Below, in pieces: positions 1-19,878 of a stretch of 36,915 bases of DNA. Under the pieces are notes generated by a model. The model worked only from the letters and a program-made list of their open reading frames with translations. It had not been told where the DNA came from and did not search any database. Positions within the stretch are counted from its first letter, which is position 1. Each line of letters opens with the position of its first letter. The stretch is from a virus, in UHGV virus genome UHGV-0071814; one strand, 5' to 3'. A program made the position numbers and the translations under genes.

Positions 1-491
1 TTTACATTTAAGAAAAGAGCATTGTTTTCATGCTGAGTTATAGTTACAGCCCCGGTAAATGGCTGCCTTACCCCAATTAATGCATCACCTTTTGAATCAT
101 CATTAATGTATGCTCCTGATTGAGATAACTGCTCTTTGAAGTCTGGGCCAAACTGATCTGGATCGTATTTTAATACATTTGGAAAATAAAACTGCTGAGT
201 GCCATAAGCATCGTAAACAGCCATAGAATGGCCTTGCACGGTTACGAATTTGGCAATCTGTCCGTTATATACCGGATATCCAGCAGCGTTAATGATTATT
301 GGTTGCGAAACAGGAATGTGAGAACCGTCTTCGTTCTCTACATAAACCTGAATCTGGTTTTCAGGATTTACCGGGTCAGTGTCAATTTTACCGATATAAA
401 TTTTGCCATTGGCTACGGCTTTAAAAGAACGCGCCATAGTGAAGAGTTGCGAAGGCATACTCACTACAACATTGGCTGTAATGTCTGTCAT
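1..491 (-). CDS. Tailspike protein, N-terminal head-binding domain (partial; gene continues past window start)
   Basis: Minus-strand translation from ATG at 491-489 reads [43 protein letters not shown]..., matching the conserved P22/Sf6/HK620 tailspike N-terminus as I recall it; not in the ORF track because there is no stop in the window. Confidence 0.85.
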
Positions 492-559
492 TTAATTTGC
501 TCCAGATACAAGGAATCGCCGCAGCATTGCCACAGTGATGCATTATTAATCAAACAAAG

Positions 560-574
560 AGACCACTGTGGTCT
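560..574. promoter_or_regulatory. 15-bp perfect palindrome AGACCAC-T-GTGGTCT in the mnt/tailspike intergenic region; candidate Mnt operator
   Basis: Inverted repeat read directly; lies between the divergent mnt and tailspike starts. Confidence 0.45.
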
Positions 575-637
575 TATTGAGGATGCAACCAGCAGATAAT
601 AAGATGCCGATCCACTCACAAAAGCGAGGCATCAAGA

Positions 638-889
638 ATGGGAAGAGATGACCCGCAATTTAATCTGCGGCTACCTTACGAATTAAAGGAAAAACTAAAA
701 CAGCGAGCCAAATCCAATGGCCGCTCTCTTAATTCAGAATTAGTTCAGATAGTGACTGATGCCGTATCAAAGCCATCCAAAATTTCAGGCTATCGAGACG
801 ATGCGGAACGCATCGCTGATGAGCAGTCTGAACTTGTTAAGAAGATGGTGTTTGATACGCTGAAGGATTTGTACAAAAAACCCACCTGA
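638..889 (+). CDS. mnt: Mnt repressor (ribbon-helix-helix, Arc/Mnt family)
   Basis: 83 aa, MGRDDPQFNLRLPYELKEKLKQRAKSNGRSLNSELVQIV...DEQSELVKKMVFDTLKDLYKKPT; same length and near-identical C-terminus to P22 Mnt as recalled. Confidence 0.85.
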   Translation: MGRDDPQFNLRLPYELKEKLKQRAKSNGRSLNSELVQIVTDAVSKPSKISGYRDDAERIADEQSELVKKMVFDTLKDLYKKPT

Positions 890-906
890 AGGTGGGTTAA
901 TTTTTG
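879..906. terminator. Intrinsic terminator hairpin (AACCCACC-TGAA-GGTGGGTT) with T-tract; mnt stop codon lies in the loop; A/T runs on both sides
   Basis: Stem-loop and flanking A/T tracts read directly. Confidence 0.6.
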
Positions 907-988
907 CATTTACCTGGGCCATATTGACTACTTATAAAATGAGATCAATATTTAATCGCCCAATAACGGGTGTATGTTGAGGTATATC

Positions 989-1168
989 ATGGCGAAAAAA
1001 CCAGGTGAAAACACAGGAAAAAACGGCGGAATATACCAAGAAGTTGGCCCACGCGGCGGTAAGAAAGACAATTTTGCAACCGTCAAGGACAACGAAAGGC
1101 TTCCACCAACAACAAAGCCAGGTCATGGCTGGGTATTGGATAAGCGAACTCCAGACAGCAAAAAGTAA
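989..1168 (+). CDS. YjzC-like small protein (KGG/stress-protein-like)
   Basis: ATG at 989 with GAGG 7 nt upstream; MAKKPGENTGKNGGIYQEVGPRGG...ERLPPTTKPGHGWVL resembles the YjzC-family pattern. Confidence 0.5.
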   Translation: MAKKPGENTGKNGGIYQEVGPRGGKKDNFATVKDNERLPPTTKPGHGWVLDKRTPDSKK

Positions 1169-1174
1169 TAATCA

Positions 1175-1197
1175 AGCCGGGTCACTCCGGCTTTTTG
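1175..1197. terminator. Intrinsic terminator (AGCCGG-GTCACT-CCGGCT + TTTTT) between convergent genes
   Basis: GC-rich hairpin followed by T-tract; sits between the ends of the 989-1168 and 1182-1547 genes. Confidence 0.55.
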
Positions 1198-1547
1198 ATA
1201 TGTCGCTCGCAGAACTCAACAAGCCTGCTCATTAAGTAGCAGTAAGTCTCGTTGGCTCTTCCTGGTTCAACATCAACACCTACCCTTGAGCAGATATCGA
1301 ATGCCATGTGAGCGCACTCATGGGCAATAGTAGATAGTTTGCCATTGAACACGCCTATCACATGCAAAACACCATTCTCGCTACTCATTGTATGAGACGC
1401 TCCGTTGGCGTCCGAGTCATGCACGTCAACGCCAAGTTTTTGATGCAGGCGTTGCCATTCTGGAAAGTCTCTACAAAACACAATTGTACCGCTCTCAAAG
1501 AGCGGAACGAGCATCTTTGGTACGTTTCCAATGTTAACTTTTTTCAT
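1182..1547 (-). CDS. Hypothetical protein with HExxH motif (possible small metallopeptidase-like protein)
   Basis: 121-aa ORF; HECAH within IAHECAHMAFD; AGGAT upstream of start. Confidence 0.45.
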   Translation of the reverse strand: MKKVNIGNVPKMLVPLFESGTIVFCRDFPEWQRLHQKLGVDVHDSDANGASHTMSSENGVLHVIGVFNGKLSTIAHECAHMAFDICSRVGVDVEPGRANETYCYLMSRLVEFCERHIKKPE

Positions 1548-1581
1548 GGTATCCTGCGCAAAACTAAGGAGAGTTAATTAT

Positions 1582-2067
1582 ATGAAAAAATCACTGTTAA
1601 TTATCCCGCTTCTGCTGGCTGGGTGCGCAAAAGTAAGTGACTATCAAGCAAGTTGCGAACAACGCTATCAAAAGCTTAGCGATATGGCTAATTGCCTTGA
1701 TGCCAGTGTGAAGAACGACTCACGCATGGCATCAGCACCAACACCTAAGCTGTATGTCCTTGCTGCAAAGATGCTCGGGCAAGGTGTCGATGAAGGCAAG
1801 ATAAGTGACGCACAGGCAAGACTTGAGCTTCAGAATCTTTATGTTCAATTACAAAGCCAAGAACAAGCCCAACAAATAGCACAAAGCCAAGCATTCCAGC
1901 AGGCTTTATTGAATTATCAGGCTGTAAACACAATGCAAGCGATCGAGCAAAAAGCGCGCCAGCCTGTTATAACTCAACCTTACCCAACACGCGTTGACAC
2001 ATATACAAACTGCAATTCAGGATTTGGAAACGCGGTAACATGCAACAGTAGCAGTAACATCAGATAA
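1582..2067 (+). CDS. Lipoprotein (signal peptide plus lipobox LLAGC), Q-rich C-terminal part
   Basis: ATG at 1582 with GGAGAG upstream; MKKSLLIIPLLLAGC; start trimmed from ORF-track 1531. Confidence 0.65.
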   Translation: MKKSLLIIPLLLAGCAKVSDYQASCEQRYQKLSDMANCLDASVKNDSRMASAPTPKLYVLAAKMLGQGVDEGKISDAQARLELQNLYVQLQSQEQAQQIAQSQAFQQALLNYQAVNTMQAIEQKARQPVITQPYPTRVDTYTNCNSGFGNAVTCNSSSNIR

Positions 2068-2157
2068 CAATCAGCAAAGGTATCGCCTATGCAGAGGAAT
2101 ACGATAAACCTCGCGTTCTACATATTTGGTTTTTGCACGTTCCTGGTGTTTGAAAGG

Positions 2158-4155
2158 CTATTCTGACAACGAATCAGACTTAGCACCCTGCGTCAGTGCA
2201 TTAATCGCTTTTTGCGCTTGCTGCATGGCTTTCTCAAACGCTGTCGATCCGCGTGGTGTGTTTGCCATTCGGAGCATTGCATTTCTGAATGGTTCGCTCT
2301 CATAGGCGCGAGTAAGAAGTCCGTAGCTTACCGCTGCGCCAGTTGTCGCCGGGTTCATTGCTGTCCCATACCCGATAATGAACGGGATGGTTTGCTGCCC
2401 TGTTGGTGTTGTTACTGCCGCTTTTGCAGCCTGCTGCGTGGATTGCAGGTAGTTTTTCAATCCTTTCAGATAAGCAGCGTCCTGCCCCTTAAATGTGATG
2501 CCAGTCTGGTTTTGCAGGATGTTAAGCTGTCGAAGGAACTGATCAGGGGAACCACCTGATTTCTCCATCGCCTTTCCAATGATGCCATTGCGCATTTGCG
2601 CCCTGCCAACACGACCAACTGAGTTATACAGCGTCTTAATTTCCGATTTGTTCTTGCTGAATAGCATGTTGTTGACAACTTCCGGCGTCAGGTCGCCTTT
2701 CATGAGAACATTCTTCAGCATGGTATTCTTTAGTTTCGCCGCTTCGTCAGCGTAGACGGCATTGGCCTGCTGATATTTACGGAGAGTATCGTTGCCAAGA
2801 TTCTGACCAATGGCACCATTGATATCGTCGGTCATTGCCTTGTAAACGCGCTGAATGGCAGCATCGGAACGGTTTGGTAACACTGGTCGCTCACCCTTCA
2901 CATCCATTCTGAACTGGCTGCGCAGATCGCTTAATTGCTTCAAATCCAGATTTACCGGACCATCAGGACCAGCATTGCGAACAAGCTCATCACGATAGGA
3001 CTGAAGTTTTGAAATAGTCTCGTTATCAGCAACCTTACCAAGCTTCTGCAGGTTAGATATTTCTGTATCAATCTGCTGAATTGCTCTTGCAGGCTGAATG
3101 TTTATTCCCGCCATAGCATTCTGAACCTGCTCCAGTCGATTACCGGCGGCACGACGAATTCCTGATGTTTTCGCTTTAAGGCTGTCAATAACAACCGCTG
3201 GATCATACTCACCGAATTTATCAGCAAATCTCTGAACCAACTGGCTTCTCGCTTCCTGTTGCGTTGCTCTCATTCCGCTTGTGCCAGCCAGGGGGATATT
3301 TTCTGCTGTCGTTTGCGCCATTTTTCCGACGCGGGAAGTAGGCTGTAACAGGTCTGTGGTGTGCAGAGGAACTCCTTCACGCTCTGCAAATCTGATAGCC
3401 TGCTGCGCTTCTGGCGCAATAGCACCACGAACGCCACGATAAGCAGCACCTAATCCACGTCCGGCAGCGTTAATAGCACCGCCAGCCAGAACGCCAACGC
3501 CTAAATCGGTGGCGAGTGCTTCCGCATCATCTTTCGCACTATTTGCAGCAAGTGATCCAACTGCGTTTTCTGCTAGAAGGCGAGTTGCCCCCTGAGCAAT
3601 TCGACCAGCAAGTGTTGGTGCCTGTGCTGCCGCTCTCTCAACGCCAGCAGGAGTGAGGTAAGGCAATGCTTCAGCAAATACCCTTCCCTCTGTCGTTTGT
3701 GGAGTGAGCGCGCCTTGCTGAAGGCCAAAGTCCTGCTCTAACCCCTGCGTTGTTACTCGTGGCGCTGGTTGATATGTACCATCGCCAATGCCGAGTTTAC
3801 CGCCAGCCCATGCCGCCGCGCTTGTTACAGCATCGGCAACTGATGCAGGTATGTTTGCCACGTTCACGCCAGCCTGCACCAGTCCGCGACCAGTTTCTTT
3901 CACGGCTTCACCAAGATCCGACATAAATCCACTTTGCTGTGGTTGTTGCTGTGATACTGGTTGTTGTGTCTCCACTGGCTGCACAGATGGCAATGGATAG
4001 GCAGCATAGAAAGCTTGCTTAGCCTGCTCTGCATTTTCTCCGGCTTGCGGGGCAACGACTTCATTGAAGTATTGCTCCTGAGCCTGCGCTTTTTGTTCTG
4101 GTGCTAACGCCTGATACTGTGGAGAGGCGATAACATCTTTCCATGCTTTAGCCAT
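2158..4155 (-). CDS. DNA ejection/injection protein (P22 gp16-like)
   Basis: 665-aa Ala/Gly/Gln-rich protein at the end of the gp7-gp20-gp16 block after the tail needle. Confidence 0.7.
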   Translation of the reverse strand: MAKAWKDVIASPQYQALAPEQKAQAQEQYFNEVVAPQAGENAEQAKQAFYAAYPLPSVQPVETQQPVSQQQPQQSGFMSDLGEAVKETGRGLVQAGVNVANIPASVADAVTSAAAWAGGKLGIGDGTYQPAPRVTTQGLEQDFGLQQGALTPQTTEGRVFAEALPYLTPAGVERAAAQAPTLAGRIAQGATRLLAENAVGSLAANSAKDDAEALATDLGVGVLAGGAINAAGRGLGAAYRGVRGAIAPEAQQAIRFAEREGVPLHTTDLLQPTSRVGKMAQTTAENIPLAGTSGMRATQQEARSQLVQRFADKFGEYDPAVVIDSLKAKTSGIRRAAGNRLEQVQNAMAGINIQPARAIQQIDTEISNLQKLGKVADNETISKLQSYRDELVRNAGPDGPVNLDLKQLSDLRSQFRMDVKGERPVLPNRSDAAIQRVYKAMTDDINGAIGQNLGNDTLRKYQQANAVYADEAAKLKNTMLKNVLMKGDLTPEVVNNMLFSKNKSEIKTLYNSVGRVGRAQMRNGIIGKAMEKSGGSPDQFLRQLNILQNQTGITFKGQDAAYLKGLKNYLQSTQQAAKAAVTTPTGQQTIPFIIGYGTAMNPATTGAAVSYGLLTRAYESEPFRNAMLRMANTPRGSTAFEKAMQQAQKAINALTQGAKSDSLSE

Positions 4156-11797: not shown

Positions 11798-13996
11798 TTA
11801 CTGCTGTGGTTGTTGCTGAGTTGATTTTTGCAGGATGCTGTTGATGTCCATGCGCTGCGCATGGCCCTGCGCCTGACTCTTCAGGACAAGCTCTGCATCA
11901 GCACGGGCATTATCTCCTTGCTGTTGCTGGAACTGTCCGAGCAGTTTCAGCGCCTCACGGATATCAGATTTTTGCTGGCTATCGGCAGATGCGAGGATTT
12001 TCACAACATTTGCCGCAGCAACCTGAGCATCCGTCTGTGCCTGGAATGCTTTAACCTGAATGGCTGCTTGTTCGTTCTGCGCTTTCTGCAATTCAGCCTG
12101 ACCAGCAAGAAGCTGACCTTGCGCAGCAACCATAGCCGGATCTGGCTGACTGGCCTGTTGTTGTTTCGCCTGCTCAACCATTTGCTGTTCTTCAGGCGTT
12201 CTCGGCTTGATAACGCCAGACAGAAGCAACTGATTGCGGTTGTATTCTTTCAGGTCGTCCATCCCTTCGCCGTCCATATTGTCGAGAATCATCGACGATA
12301 CAAGGTCATGCTTCGGCGTTCCTGGCGGGATAAGTGCCAGCATGGAAAGTAACGACTTAACCGTTGCATCACGGCGAGTAGCGAACGACTGACCGACATC
12401 GACAGTCACTTCATAGTTACCCTGCGAAAGGTCGTTAAGCGCGATAACCTGCCCTGTCTGACGGTCAACCACTTCACCAGTCATCAGCGCCACGTCATCG
12501 CTGCCGTCCTCATTAACGATACGCATCGGCGTATCGCTGCCATAGACTTCACGCGCCATAGAAAGCCACACAACGCCAGCGCGACGCATGGATTTAGCCA
12601 TGTTGTCCATGTAGATATAGGACTGCGTGTCCATCCGGTTAAAAATGCTATCAACGGTATCGGTGGCGACGTTGCTCGGCATGTTCTCAAGCTGCGAAGC
12701 ACCTGTAATTTGCTGAATAGCCGTTCCGGTGTACTGCAATAGCCCGGCAAGAGCTGGAGGCATTTGTGTCGGAGGCGTCCAGCCAGCAACCTGAGCCTCT
12801 GAAATGACCGTTCCGTTTTTGTCCTTCTTGCTGGTCATGGGAAGAACTGCTGGTCTTTTCTTATTCCTCTCTGCCCAGTGATTCATTAATGGACCGGGAA
12901 TGAAATCAACATCCACGATAGGAATGCCATCACCGCCAGCCTGAGTAGCGTTATCTGCAATCATGGAAACCATCAGGTTCTCAAGACGCTGTGCATCCAT
13001 CGCTTTTGCAGCGTGGCCTTCGATTCGCTCCTGATTATCAACAAATGAGCGACGCCCATATACCGGGATGAGAGGAATATGTTCGCCCGGAATACGCTTC
13101 GGTTCTTCCAGCCATTCAGCGCCAGACAGAAGGCCGCAATAAACGCGGCGTTTCTTCACTGTCCGCTCGCCAATCAGTTCGAATGCGCCATCGGTCAGCT
13201 CGTCAACAATATCTTTGATTTGCTCTTCATCATAGATTGCCGTTTCTCCGCTAACAGGGTTGCGCCACGCCGTGAGCTTCACCTTCTCTATGCGAACTTC
13301 GTAGTAGCGTCCAACATAGATGACATCGGGCGTTGACCAGTCATACTGAGTGCCAGTGTCATCACGAGAAAGGCTTGCCGCGATGGAATCAGGGTATTCA
13401 GTCTCGAACGCTTTAGGCGTCATGGAGAACATTTCCATAGCCCACATAGCATCAGAACGGTCATATTGCTTGCTGTCCTGATCGAAGAAGACGCATGTCG
13501 CTGGGTCGTAAACAGGAAGAAAGCTGATGCGGCGCTGCTCGTTACTCGGATCCATTTCATCTTCGTAATCGGCACACATGCGGAAACAACCGAATCCGCC
13601 CGTTACAGCATCATCAAATGCGTTATCACACGCTTCGCCACCGGATGTTTCCTGATAGTCAGCGCGGAATTTGCCGTTCATCTTTTCGGCTAACGCTTCC
13701 GATGCCTTATCGTCCTTCGGCCTGAATTTAACGCTGATGCGATTCTGTCGATACTCGCCAATGATGCGATCACATTCACGGGCAATCTTATTCAGTTCAA
13801 AGCGCGGGTAATGCTCAAACCTGCCTTCATCAAATGAGTAACCAGCGTTTGTGCTGCCTTCCCACTGTGCGCCGGACACCCGGACGAAACGTTGAGCCTC
13901 AATAATCTGCTCACGCATATCCTGCATTGCTGACCAGGCATTATCAAAGTTGCACAGCACCTTGCGATGCCAGTCAGTCATCTTTTTTTCTGCCAT
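11798..13996 (-). CDS. Portal protein (P22 gp1-like)
   Basis: 732 aa, Q-rich C-terminal barrel-like tail, directly after TerL. Confidence 0.9.
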   Translation of the reverse strand: MAEKKMTDWHRKVLCNFDNAWSAMQDMREQIIEAQRFVRVSGAQWEGSTNAGYSFDEGRFEHYPRFELNKIARECDRIIGEYRQNRISVKFRPKDDKASEALAEKMNGKFRADYQETSGGEACDNAFDDAVTGGFGCFRMCADYEDEMDPSNEQRRISFLPVYDPATCVFFDQDSKQYDRSDAMWAMEMFSMTPKAFETEYPDSIAASLSRDDTGTQYDWSTPDVIYVGRYYEVRIEKVKLTAWRNPVSGETAIYDEEQIKDIVDELTDGAFELIGERTVKKRRVYCGLLSGAEWLEEPKRIPGEHIPLIPVYGRRSFVDNQERIEGHAAKAMDAQRLENLMVSMIADNATQAGGDGIPIVDVDFIPGPLMNHWAERNKKRPAVLPMTSKKDKNGTVISEAQVAGWTPPTQMPPALAGLLQYTGTAIQQITGASQLENMPSNVATDTVDSIFNRMDTQSYIYMDNMAKSMRRAGVVWLSMAREVYGSDTPMRIVNEDGSDDVALMTGEVVDRQTGQVIALNDLSQGNYEVTVDVGQSFATRRDATVKSLLSMLALIPPGTPKHDLVSSMILDNMDGEGMDDLKEYNRNQLLLSGVIKPRTPEEQQMVEQAKQQQASQPDPAMVAAQGQLLAGQAELQKAQNEQAAIQVKAFQAQTDAQVAAANVVKILASADSQQKSDIREALKLLGQFQQQQGDNARADAELVLKSQAQGHAQRMDINSILQKSTQQQPQQ

Positions 13997-13997
13997 A

Positions 13998-15413
13998 TCA
14001 ACCTACACCACAAGGAATTGAGTAACTGGAATAGTCGGGTTGCGCAGCCGACTCCGGGCAATGCATACACATCATCAGCGCATCAGCCAGGTTAGGAGAT
14101 GGGATACCGAGCTTCTGCTTCATTTCGACCTTAGTCATAAGCTCCAGCTTCCCGTTATTATTGAATTTGCGCTGAATCTGCGTCAGTTCTGCAAACAGCT
14201 TCTCCAGCATCTTCTCGCCTATCGCTTCTTTGTCGAAGCTCAGCATGTCGTCGGGGTCTGCATACTCACCGTGGACAACCGCCCGATATGTCAGATACAG
14301 CCTGTCAGCCAGCGCGTAATAGAATTGCGCTCGCTTATTGCGGAACACATCACCAATAGTGCGAACGTTGTCGCCCTGTACGACTTCATCAGCCCATGCT
14401 CCGGCCTGATACGGCGCATCTTCATCGAATGGCGATTCACTGCCCTTGAACATCGTGGCGGTGATTTTCTTACCGGAGAATGCTTCCGTTGTCTGTCTGC
14501 GTAGCCCCGCACCGACGCCATCACCATCCCACAGGTAATGGTCAGCGCTGTCTTCAATCGCCAGCGAAGTAGCCCAGTCAGCACCCTCGTTGATGTCCAT
14601 CAGCAGACCTTCGGCAATGCGCTTAACCACCGAACCGTGACGCGATGCGTAACCTTTAGCATCTGGCCCTGTATCTGACGGGTCATGCGCAGAAACAACC
14701 GCACCTTTCGCTTTCCATCCGAGTTTCTTGTGCGCATCGGTTGCGGCTTCAAGCCATTCACGTTTGATGATTGCCATATCACTTGCGCTTACCGGCTCAC
14801 CAAGCCAGATGTGACGATACAGTGTCGGATTTCTGCGTTTGCACTCTTCCATCTCCAGACGGAGAACTTCAGGAAAGTGCGGGTTGTCGGTGTAGTTCAC
14901 CGTCAGCAGACAAATATCATCGGGAGGGTTTACTACGAATCGCTGATAGGTATCGTCGAGGATGTTTTTCGGGTTGAAGCTCACCCATATTTCGGAAAAT
15001 GGCTTGCGGATGGTTGGTATCAGGATATCCCATGATTCCTTCGTTACCGCTTCCGCTTCCTCCACCCAGCAGATATCAATGCCTTCGAGCGATTTAATCT
15101 TCGTCGGGTTGTTTTTGATGCCGTAGAACATGAACTCAGCATTCGTTCCGAGATGACGAATCATTGAACGCTGAATTTCAAACTCAGCCGAATACCCTTC
15201 CCGCTCTATGGTGTCTTCAAGCAACCGGATTACCGAATCGCTAATACTGTTTTGCAGTTCACGAGCGCAGAGAATACGCACCGGCTGCCGACGCGCCGCT
15301 TCAACAAGCAGCCTCGAGATTGCCCATGACTTACCGCTACCTCGACCGCCTTTGGCGACTTTATAGCGATGCGCCTCAATGAACGGTTCAAAGATAGGAT
15401 TAATCGAGGTCAT
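13998..15413 (-). CDS. Terminase large subunit
   Basis: 471 aa; Walker A KGGRGSGKS near N-terminus; start overlaps TerS stop. Confidence 0.9.
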   Translation of the reverse strand: MTSINPIFEPFIEAHRYKVAKGGRGSGKSWAISRLLVEAARRQPVRILCARELQNSISDSVIRLLEDTIEREGYSAEFEIQRSMIRHLGTNAEFMFYGIKNNPTKIKSLEGIDICWVEEAEAVTKESWDILIPTIRKPFSEIWVSFNPKNILDDTYQRFVVNPPDDICLLTVNYTDNPHFPEVLRLEMEECKRRNPTLYRHIWLGEPVSASDMAIIKREWLEAATDAHKKLGWKAKGAVVSAHDPSDTGPDAKGYASRHGSVVKRIAEGLLMDINEGADWATSLAIEDSADHYLWDGDGVGAGLRRQTTEAFSGKKITATMFKGSESPFDEDAPYQAGAWADEVVQGDNVRTIGDVFRNKRAQFYYALADRLYLTYRAVVHGEYADPDDMLSFDKEAIGEKMLEKLFAELTQIQRKFNNNGKLELMTKVEMKQKLGIPSPNLADALMMCMHCPESAAQPDYSSYSIPCGVG

Positions 15414-16198: not shown

Positions 16199-16570
16199 CT
16201 ACTGTTCGCTTAGCTTCTGCTTCAGCAAGTAACCTTCGAGCATCCAGATTTTGTTTACAGCATTCTGCCGGGCAATCTTCCGACCGATCTCCGGGTCGAA
16301 GTTTTCCGGGCTGGCGCAGGCACTTTCGCCGGTGACGGTGAAGCCGTTGCGCAGCACCAGGACGCAGAATGTAAGAAGCTTTAATGCTTCCTGACTTTCG
16401 GTTAAATCAAGCGCGGATTTGTATGTCGCCATAGCGCCCTCTCCGCCAATACCATCGTATGCGGTGAAGCAATGCTCGCTTTTAATCACGTCTTCGATGT
16501 GCTGCGGGGTGATTCGCGGTGCCGTTTTGCCTTTCTCAACGATTTCTTTTTCGATTTGCTGGTCGTTCAT
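16199..16570 (-). CDS. Gp49-like phage protein (N4 gp49/Sf6 gp66 family)
   Basis: 123 aa, MNDQQIEKEIVEKGKTAPRITPQHIEDV... recalled as this family. Confidence 0.5.
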   Translation of the reverse strand: MNDQQIEKEIVEKGKTAPRITPQHIEDVIKSEHCFTAYDGIGGEGAMATYKSALDLTESQEALKLLTFCVLVLRNGFTVTGESACASPENFDPEIGRKIARQNAVNKIWMLEGYLLKQKLSEQ

Positions 16571-16748: not shown

Positions 16749-17234
16749 TTATTTCAGTTCGTTACCAGGCATTTCTTTTAGCTCTTTCAAATGACAACGA
16801 TTGAGACTAAACCACTCCCCGTGCGACCTATAGTTGTAATATTTTTGGTGCAATTTGGTTTCAAGCTCTCTATCGGCCGGAATCTTTGCAATTAGATTTA
16901 GCTTCCCACCACTCATGCGAGATATCTCTGAAATCCGTTTATTAACCCTGCGACTAAACCCTATTTTTGTTAGCCCACTATCTTCAGCATGCAGAACGTA
17001 CACATATGATTTTTGCGAAGCACTGGGTGCGACTTTGTTGTAATTAATCATGTCAAACATGAAGCCTTGCTTTAGCAAAGTTTCAAAAAAGATAGAATTA
17101 ACACACCCATTCCTTCTCAGCTCTGCACTTAGCTTGTCAATTTCCTCTATGATGTCGCCAGACCCCTTTCCACTTATAAGAAAATCTTGGTACATGCGAC
17201 CAATTCTTGAGGTAATTTCAACAAAGTTATTCAT
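16749..17234 (-). CDS. T5orf172 (GIY-YIG-like) domain protein; AT-rich moron
   Basis: C-terminal YVYVLHAEDSGLTKIGFS...LHQKYYNYRSHGEWFSLN fits the T5orf172 pattern; markedly AT-rich versus flanking genes. Confidence 0.6.
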   Translation of the reverse strand: MNNFVEITSRIGRMYQDFLISGKGSGDIIEEIDKLSAELRRNGCVNSIFFETLLKQGFMFDMINYNKVAPSASQKSYVYVLHAEDSGLTKIGFSRRVNKRISEISRMSGGKLNLIAKIPADRELETKLHQKYYNYRSHGEWFSLNRCHLKELKEMPGNELK

Positions 17235-19386: not shown

Positions 19387-19878
19387 CTATCCCATACTGG
19401 AGAATTCACCATGATATTTTATCCTGGCATTTTCCATTGCCTTTCTCGCCTCCTCGATATCGTCAAAACACCCTACATGAATCCTTTTACCATTGACCCT
19501 AATTCTTCCAACCCACTTGTTTGCAGCAGAATTAAAAGTCACCCCCTTCACACCAGATGAATTGTTTTTCCTCATCTTGCTGTTCCATGAGTTTTGAGTG
19601 TTAGTAACAACACGAAGATTGGCTATCCGGTTATCAGATCTATCACCATTAATATGGTCAATCACATCGGTTGGCCAATCATTGTAAACCATCAGCCATG
19701 CAATTCTATGGACATATAGCCGCATTCCATAAAGTTTTACCTGCAGATATCCATTTGTTTCATAGCCAACAACAGCGCCATAGATAAATCTAGAGGACCG
19801 AGGTGGATTCTTCCATGTAAGAATTCCAGTATCTGGATTGTAATTAAAAAGTCTCAATGCATCTTCACGTTTTAACAT
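19387..19878 (-). CDS. HNH homing endonuclease with C-terminal AP2-like domain
   Basis: 163 aa; ...VHRIAWLMVYNDWPTDVIDHINGDRSDNRIANLRVV...SGVKGVTFNSAANKWVGRI... Confidence 0.7.
   Translation of the reverse strand: MLKREDALRLFNYNPDTGILTWKNPPRSSRFIYGAVVGYETNGYLQVKLYGMRLYVHRIAWLMVYNDWPTDVIDHINGDRSDNRIANLRVVTNTQNSWNSKMRKNNSSGVKGVTFNSAANKWVGRIRVNGKRIHVGCFDDIEEARKAMENARIKYHGEFSSMG

Follow-up and report, generated by a model that had tools for sequence, protein, structure and literature searches.

What does a P22-like prophage keep between its ejection-protein and tailspike genes when sieA, arc and ant are absent, and could any of it exclude superinfecting phages? The question is raised by positions 491-2157 of the virus genome UHGV-0071814, of which the whole stretch of 36,915 nucleotides was analysed (hereafter, the window). 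In P22-like phages the interval between gene 16, encoding an ejection protein, and gene 9, encoding the tailspike, is a variable region termed the "ant moron" (PMC2629481), and prophage-expressed superinfection immunity has been located there: the SieA protein of P22 blocks DNA injection (PMC10883804), and an antisense RNA of BTP1, STnc6030, gives superinfection immunity (PMC7067206). The initial annotation of the window, which called this position a known defence hotspot, agrees with these reports. It further proposed that a lipoprotein and a protein with an HExxH motif, encoded here by divergent genes, form a functional pair.

Here, we describe the anatomy of this interval, its homologies, the restriction of its genes to particular positions and their independent assortment among related genomes. 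Our best explanation is that it represents the ant moron (the immI/sieA interval) of a P22-like (Lederbergvirus) Escherichia coli prophage, reduced and mosaic, and that it is made up of four independent units, not one cluster, with a lipoprotein that may exclude superinfecting phages. Taken as a whole, with the identity of the locus, the four units and the exclusion function together, we give this explanation about an even chance of being correct. The architecture of the locus, two of its three small genes and both of its terminators were known already; the lipoprotein family and the HExxH protein, HkcC, are uncharacterised.

Results

Identity and borders of the interval

The interval is bordered by the 5' part of a tailspike gene and by a gene 16 homolog (Table 1), and the annotations of the P22 and HK620 records transfer onto it. 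Its shared parts have 91-97% nucleotide identity with P22, HK620, ST160 and Gally. Positions 400-2300, used as a query, matched an E. coli chromosome at 99.9% identity and gave partial matches in 1152 of 5426 complete E. coli genomes; loci matching this query include clinical isolates, such as an ST131 strain. The four open reading frames (ORFs), both terminators and the divergent gene pair were confirmed where the initial annotation had placed them, the hkcC ATG lying at 1547 and the lipoprotein ATG at 1582, with a gap of 34 bp.

The interval resembles the ant morons of P22 and HK620 in its position, flanking genes and strand logic, and mnt, orf59a, hkcC and the terminators tMNT and tORF59A are common to all of them, with proteins at 76-99% identity. 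It differs from them in that arc, ant and the promoter Pant are absent, that the lipoprotein gene replaces sieA (P22) or hkcB (HK620), and that Mnt and its operator are a specificity variant. In tblastn searches of the whole window P22 Arc, Ant and SieA had no homolog, Arc cross-matching the N-terminus of Mnt only; mnt is present without arc or ant, as first described, and sieA is also absent. Judged by sequence comparison, the departures from P22 are just two, the loss of arc, ant and Pant and the lipoprotein gene in place of sieA. The description of three unrelated small genes at the P22 sieA/mnt-arc-ant position holds for the position but not for the genes, since orf59a and hkcC are standard genes of P22 and HK620, present in P22 at 98-99% identity. 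Likewise, the two terminators said to insulate the cargo are in place but were already annotated in HK620, as tMNT and tORF59A. Profile hidden Markov model searches of the three small proteins, a check that the initial annotation had suggested, assigned the lipoprotein to phrog_6067, the HExxH protein to phrog_1365 and the 59-residue protein to phrog_3202, with nothing above threshold in Pfam or NCBIfam for the first two.

A lipoprotein gene occupies the sieA slot

The lipoprotein, here named Lpp161, is encoded in the slot that sieA fills in P22. The leader of the slot is near-identical to that of P22 up to the Shine-Dalgarno sequence AAGGAG, and the two sequences diverge from there. In P22, 85 bp upstream of sieA are enough for expression and exclusion (PMC10883804). 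Loci lacking hkcC still have approximately 40 bp of this leader, Shine-Dalgarno sequence included, ahead of the lipoprotein gene. By this alignment, the lipoprotein gene has taken the exact place of sieA after the shared leader. We regard the locus as a moron cassette of a prophage, at a site already known for exclusion.

The replacement is one of many. Among 80 viral contigs (L017-L096) bearing an hkcC 99-100% identical to that of the window, the gene diverging from hkcC is of at least ten unrelated types: the lipoprotein in 18 genomes, an HkcB-type protein of 109 amino acids in about 15, SieA in 13, a signal-peptide protein of 129 amino acids in 12, membrane proteins of 75, 106 and 62 amino acids in 8, 5 and 4 genomes, respectively, and others in a few genomes each. 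Reading of their N-terminal sequences places nearly all of these cassettes in the signal-peptide, lipoprotein or transmembrane class, and most have no Pfam match. The arrangement seen in the window is the most frequent among the sampled hkcC-bearing genomes. A second sample comprised 89 loci encoding the Lpp161 family. In every one with enough flanking sequence, gene 16 lies directly downstream in convergent orientation and the tailspike gene lies on the other side; prophages of Yersinia ruckeri and Morganella have the lipoprotein gene and no other called between the two. The commonest order is tailspike-mnt-lipoprotein-gene 16.

These samples bear directly on the proposal that the lipoprotein and the HExxH protein constitute a two-component superinfection-exclusion or receptor-blocking system. 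The two genes are adjacent and divergent across only 34 bp, in a known exclusion hotspot, and it is this geometry that favours a pair. The genes nevertheless assort independently: hkcC is found in 17 of the 89 lipoprotein loci and missing from the other 72, and a different cassette occupies the slot in 62 of the 80 hkcC loci. Moreover, P22 has the same hkcC beside sieA, yet SieA alone suffices for exclusion (PMC10883804), and relatives of hkcC occur in other late-operon positions and in other phage types without the lipoprotein. The pairing is largely refuted by these distributions, and we regard it as highly improbable; the 34 bp between the divergent starts mark the edge of a cassette site.

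The N-terminus of Lpp161, MKKSLLIIPLLLAGC, is a lipoprotein signal peptide, in which MKKSLLIIPLLLAG-C15 matches the lipobox pattern [LVI][ASTVI][GAS]C. In 44 homologs Cys15, Cys25, Cys38 and Cys154 are invariant, and Gly14 and Ala16, the +2 residue, are nearly so. Under the Lol rule, a residue other than Asp at +2 sorts a lipoprotein to the outer membrane, and the lipobox Cys followed by Ala predicts an outer-membrane anchor for Lpp161. Two disulfides are suggested by the conserved cysteine pairs 25/38 and 145/154, and would suit a periplasmic protein. In the AlphaFold2 model a helical-bundle domain (residues 18-93) is the sole confident part, a Gln-rich helix and a small C-terminal hairpin being of low confidence. 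Clustered at 90% identity, the family falls into about 100 groups, of which the largest has 871 members; it is confined to Enterobacterales, where it spans several genera. Lpp161 has no Pfam domain, and searches uncovered neither a named nor a distant relative. A match to the NCBIfam GspK model (18.7 bits against a cut-off of 130) was rejected, as it most likely arises from the composition of the Gln-rich segment; a comparably weak match could be the reason that "GspK" appears as the name of a homolog in one public record.

Lpp161 and SieA share the slot, strand, leader and Shine-Dalgarno sequence, are of similar length (161 and 164 amino acids), and both belong to families found solely in P22-like prophages, in the interval from gene 16 to gene 9. 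SieA differs in that it resides in the inner membrane, is predicted to have transmembrane helices and carries the motif FxRYPxEAxxFNK in the cytoplasm (PMC10883804), whereas Lpp161 is predicted to be outer-membrane-anchored and to face the periplasm. Neither that motif nor transmembrane helices were found on reading the Lpp161 sequence, which has just the N-terminal signal peptide with its lipobox, and BLASTP at E<=100 gave no alignment between Lpp161 and P22 SieA (type A).

The exact replacement of sieA, the strict position in P22-like prophages and the precedents of SieA and STnc6030 lead us to propose, at somewhat less than even odds, that Lpp161 excludes superinfecting P22-like phages from the outer-membrane or periplasmic side. 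It would then be a functional analog of SieA, not a homolog. Several observations weigh against this proposal. The promoter scan found no consensus sigma-70 promoter upstream of the lipoprotein gene, and PADLOC-DB v2 defence models gave no match to any of the four proteins at E<=0.1. Lpp161 is without similarity to any known exclusion protein; specifically, no sequence or fold similarity was detected to the exclusion lipoproteins Llp, Cor and Ltp. Furthermore, one P22-like prophage (L016, 209-562 (-)) has in its sieA slot a Rap1a-like protein (PF18602, E=5e-15; a type VI secretion system immunity family), and two others (L019, L065) have a YobH-like protein there (PF13996, E=2.5e-8); the slot therefore is not reserved for phage exclusion.

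The last two points, the lack of likeness to exclusion proteins and the Rap1a-like and YobH-like cassettes, are what one would cite for the main rival explanation, that Lpp161 is a lysogenic-conversion or fitness factor unrelated to exclusion, placed in a permissive, prophage-expressed slot. It might, for example, make the host resistant to serum or to envelope stress, as lambda Bor does, or shield it from the periplasmic toxin of a competitor. Against this, bor and other generic fitness morons move between phage types, whereas in all 89 loci examined the Lpp161 family is found in P22-like prophages, with gene 16 on one side and the tailspike gene on the other, and its gene replaces sieA precisely. 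A fitness role of this kind is possible but doubtful.

A scan of positions 2068-2157, from the lipoprotein stop to the gene 16 stop, found no terminator-like hairpin, so the lipoprotein transcript may extend antisense into gene 16, as the BTP1 RNA STnc6030 does.

Table 1. Features of the gene 16-tailspike interval of UHGV-0071814 and its borders (window coordinates)
Feature	Position	Strand	Basis and remarks
Tailspike gene, 5' part (P22 gene 9 homolog, head-binding domain)	1-491	(-)	Pfam PF09008 Head_binding, E=6e-68, residues 1-113; left border
Mnt operator variant	560-574		Dyad AGACCAC-T-GTGGTCT; 76 bp ahead of the tailspike ATG, immediately 5' to the Pmnt -35
Pmnt-like promoter	577-605	(+)	TTGAGG-17-TAAGAT; promoter scan; position equals that of TTGAGA-17-TATCAT in P22
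mnt, ribbon-helix-helix repressor with Mnt tetramerisation tail	638-889	(+)	Pfam Arc, Repressor_Mnt
tMNT, bidirectional intrinsic terminator	879-906 (hairpin 879-898)		8-bp stem, 4-nt loop, T tracts on both strands; tMNT in HK620 record AF335538
orf59a promoter-like site	924-952	(+)	TTGACT-17-AATATT; sole site reaching 9 of 12 in 300-2400; consensus match only
orf59a (HK620 "HkcD"), 59-residue basic Gly-rich protein	989-1168	(+)	98% identical to P22 ORF59a; phrog_3202, E=7e-31
tORF59A, bidirectional terminator over the last hkcC codons	1174-1197 (hairpin 1174-1193)		Hairpin and T tract, flagged on both strands; HK620 "bidirectional terminator; tORF59A"
hkcC, 121-residue putative minimal gluzincin-type metallopeptidase	1182-1547	(-), late-operon strand	HECAH at residues 76-80; HExxH-19-NE; HK620 hkcC; phrog_1365
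sieA-slot leader (equivalent of the P22 PsieA region)	1497-1581	(+)	Shine-Dalgarno AAGGAG; overlaps the hkcC 5' end on the other strand
Lpp161, 161-residue lipoprotein in the sieA slot, candidate exclusion protein	1582-2067	(+)	Lipobox LLAGC, Cys15; phrog_6067, E=9e-110
Gene 16 homolog (ejection/DNA-transfer protein)	2158-4155	(-)	phrog_770 "DNA transfer protein", E=2e-238; right border

HkcC is a putative late metallopeptidase

P22 holds an intact 121-residue copy of hkcC, 99% identical to that of the window. In record AB362338.2 this copy is unannotated and lies at about 13798-14163 (L001, 2892-3257 (-)), between ORF59a and sieA. A profile search returned 517 HkcC representatives at E<=0.001, mostly stand-alone proteins of 110-130 amino acids. 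Across 50 homologs with 24-43% identity, the sole invariant residues are G49, H76, E77, H80 and E100, and N99 is nearly invariant in a closer set of homologs, giving the motif HExxH-x19-E, usually with NE. The same spacing separates H142/H146 and E166 of thermolysin. The AlphaFold2 model (mean predicted local distance difference test score, pLDDT, 89) has a beta-sheet, a helix with the HExxH motif and then a helix of residues 100-116 starting at E100, an order of strands and helices that fits the zincin core. HkcC thus modelled resembles gluzincins of the thermolysin type and the minigluzincins in having HExxH followed by (N)E 20 residues past the second His, and in the succession of beta-sheet, active-site helix and Glu helix.

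HkcC passes no Pfam or NCBIfam model. The SprT-like model PF10263 did not match HkcC and was sub-threshold in 7 of the 50 homologs (best E=0.009), and a match to myroilysin was weak (E=0.17, aligned on HExxH); the weak SprT-like, myroilysin and SPRTN signals are all centred on the HExxH motif. All 50 homologs belong to phrog_1365, "unknown function". A literature search found no functional study of hkcC or orf59a, and the main text of the paper behind the P22 RNA sequencing data makes no mention of either. We expect HkcC to be an active zinc peptidase.

In all 80 P22-like loci hkcC is co-oriented with gene 16 and the tailspike gene. Relatives with 60-62% identity lie between tail and tape-measure genes on the structural-gene strand of siphovirus-type prophages of Klebsiella and Rosenbergiella. 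Genes of a divergent clade are located between the lysis genes and the gene for the small terminase, and all 73 of 73 loci have them on the same strand; in 53 of 80, a gap of -1 to +10 nt separates their stop from the start of the following gene, which they often overlap or abut. Because hkcC is always on the late-operon strand and its paralogs are coupled in operons, it is probably a late gene, not prophage cargo, and would encode a late-expressed cytoplasmic zinc peptidase.

The divergent HExxH-NE clade (L097-L176, about 2995-3384 (+)) occurs in P22-like and other phage genomes. A second HkcC paralog at the lysis-terminase junction of the window itself was considered and rejected, the ORF at 16199-16570 being unrelated. 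Two other ORFs in this part of the window match homing/HNH endonuclease PHROGs, 16749-17234 (-) weakly (phrog_681/18411) and 19387-19878 (-) with E=1e-75 (phrog_99); of the two, one is flanked by the lysis genes and the gene for the small terminase, and the other is beyond the lysis genes.

Terminators and the association of orf59a with hkcC

A scan of positions 300-2400 found nine terminator-like sites against 2.3 +/- 1.7 in shuffled sequences. Two of them, tMNT and tORF59A, flank orf59a, whose homolog HkcD is listed in the HK620 record merely as a possible gene. Orf59a reached 19.4 bits against Pfam YjzC (PF14168), below the cut-off of 25, and five of six homologs gave 17-19 bits over profile positions 8-54 of 55, against the same cut-off.

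The gene is convergent with hkcC in 70 of the 80 P22-like loci, and the convergent pair recurs in four other contexts, namely siphovirus-type prophages of Klebsiella and of Rosenbergiella, metagenomic contigs and another P22-like prophage. In contigs where HkcC is only 43% identical to that of the window, Orf59a is still 61% identical. These associations suggest a travelling two-gene module in which hkcC and orf59a, encoding for example a protease with a small regulator, inhibitor or substrate, would share a bidirectional terminator and move as a unit. Several findings oppose this. A 74-residue hydrophobic membrane ORF replaces orf59a in 10 of the 80 loci, with the breakpoint exactly at the tORF59A hairpin (e.g. 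L019, L021, L076 and L081, 4380-4604 (-)); orf59a occurs in none of 80 loci of the divergent HkcC clade; and the two genes lie on opposite strands with separate promoters, so that they are probably expressed at different times. We consider such a module unlikely, and obligatory linkage of the two genes is rejected by the same counts. Since the breakpoint falls at the tORF59A hairpin, the terminator doubles as a module boundary.

In the Klebsiella oxytoca and Rosenbergiella prophages the pair lies between tail tube/chaperone and tape-measure genes (L009, 5001-5563; L015, 5001-5556). In the metagenomic contigs with the 43% identical HkcC, the pair is followed by a gene for a PF18894 "putative phage metallopeptidase" (E=3e-44; L011, 1330-1968 (+); L012, 1229-1867 (+)), which places two HExxH-type proteins side by side. 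In phage Gally (L002, 2007-2426 (-)) and in vB_EcoP-720R6, orf59a and hkcC are replaced by a different lipoprotein of 139 amino acids, encoded on the late-operon strand and with a weak PEGA-domain match (E=0.004); the Lpp161 gene is retained beside it.

mnt retains a promoter and a matching operator

The product of mnt has an N-terminal ribbon-helix-helix domain (PF03869 Arc, E=3e-22, above the curated cut-off) and a C-terminal tetramerisation domain (PF11423 Repressor_Mnt, E=2e-18, residues 53-80). It is 76% identical to P22 Mnt, and residue 6 is Gln here and His in P22. The dyad at 560-574 is the single such site in the whole window and aligns with the P22 dyad GGTCCAC-C-GTGGACC, which we take to be Omnt. 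It differs from the P22 dyad at two symmetric positions, 2/16 and 4/14, and these differences coincide with the His6-to-Gln change in the DNA-binding strand of the protein, where residue 6 contacts the operator. Of 44 loci encoding the Gln6 type of Mnt, about 40 have the core GACCAC-N-GTGGTC at a distance of 59 bp ahead of the mnt start. The Gln6 variant goes with this dyad, and not with the P22 dyad GGTCCAC-N-GTGGACC, in the window and in loci L002, L023 and others. Together, Gln6 Mnt and the altered dyad look like a natural repressor/operator specificity pair.

The Pmnt-like site of Table 1 occupies the position of the P22 sequence that we assume to be P22 Pmnt. No Pant-like promoter on the minus strand was found in the promoter scan, and on reading the alignment of positions 492-637 the -10 and -35 positions of P22 Pant are not conserved. 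A complete immI, in which Mnt controls a Pant ahead of arc-ant, is accordingly not present, as arc, ant and a Pant-like promoter are all missing. The initial annotation had called mnt an orphan; because Pmnt and a matching, altered dyad operator are kept, the sequence indicates that mnt is not orphaned, and Mnt probably autoregulates. In a lysogen, Mnt bound 76 bp before the tailspike start codon may act as a roadblock; that the moron might help to set tailspike levels has been raised (PMC2629481).

The absence of arc, ant and Pant could be read in another way, as the mark of a decaying immI remnant in which mnt and the small ORFs are functionless leftovers, and the authors of the phage L study raise this for their own mnt-like gene (PMC8022706). 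Decay is very unlikely here. Each of the four ORFs is intact and is conserved in many genomes, and frequent frameshifts were not seen; Gln6 Mnt keeps a symmetric operator at a fixed distance in about 40 loci; in HkcC the catalytic-type residues stay invariant even at 24% identity; and the arrangement is the commonest in the hkcC sample.

Discussion

The features described above allow us to infer when the genes of the interval would be expressed, where their products would reside and what Lpp161 might exclude. In the lysogen, three units on the plus strand, antisense to the late operon, would be available for transcription: Pmnt-mnt-tMNT, the orf59a promoter with orf59a and tORF59A, and the leader with the lipoprotein gene. 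Being antisense to the late operon and behind the sieA leader, the lipoprotein gene should be expressed by the prophage. After induction, antiterminated late transcription of the minus strand would proceed from gene 16 through hkcC, across tORF59A, tMNT and the Mnt operator, into the tailspike gene, and hkcC alone in the interval would be read in the sense direction by this transcription. Like BTP1 STnc6030, which is prophage-expressed, lies antisense to the gene 16/tailspike junction and gives superinfection immunity, the proposed units are antisense; STnc6030 differs in being a non-coding RNA, whereas the antisense units of the window encode proteins.

Lpp161 could act in either of two ways, by interfering with the trans-envelope DNA conduit formed by gp7, gp20 and gp16, or by masking a secondary outer-membrane receptor. 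Small phage or prophage lipoproteins encoded beside virion genes for host entry are familiar from T5 (Llp), phi80 and N15 (Cor) and TP-J34 (Ltp). Lpp161 resembles these proteins in its small size, predicted lipid anchor and adjacency to genes for host-entry virion proteins; they differ in being directed against siphoviruses, through a block of FhuA or the tape-measure protein, whereas our proposal for Lpp161 concerns short-tailed P22-like phages. Ltp is cited in PMC10883804. Lpp161 may represent a new kind of exclusion protein for short-tailed P22-like phages, outer-membrane-anchored and periplasmic, blocking the conduit or a secondary receptor one compartment out from SieA and unrelated to it, although we rate this more specific proposal as unlikely. 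Less likely is the idea that HkcC, which P22 also encodes, is a late mini-gluzincin that cleaves a host protein or a defence protein of a resident prophage.

How SieA, which acts from the inner membrane, engages the ejection proteins has yet to be settled (PMC10883804). If Lpp161 excludes phages, it would provide a second, unrelated protein probe of the trans-envelope DNA conduit of P22-like podoviruses, and, with 871 sequences in its commonest cluster at 90% identity, would help to predict the phage susceptibility of E. coli. The well-studied phage P22 itself carries a conserved putative metallopeptidase, HkcC, with 517 family representatives. Finally, with at least ten alternative small envelope proteins behind one leader, the sieA slot is a compact place in which to hunt for exclusion and immunity functions.

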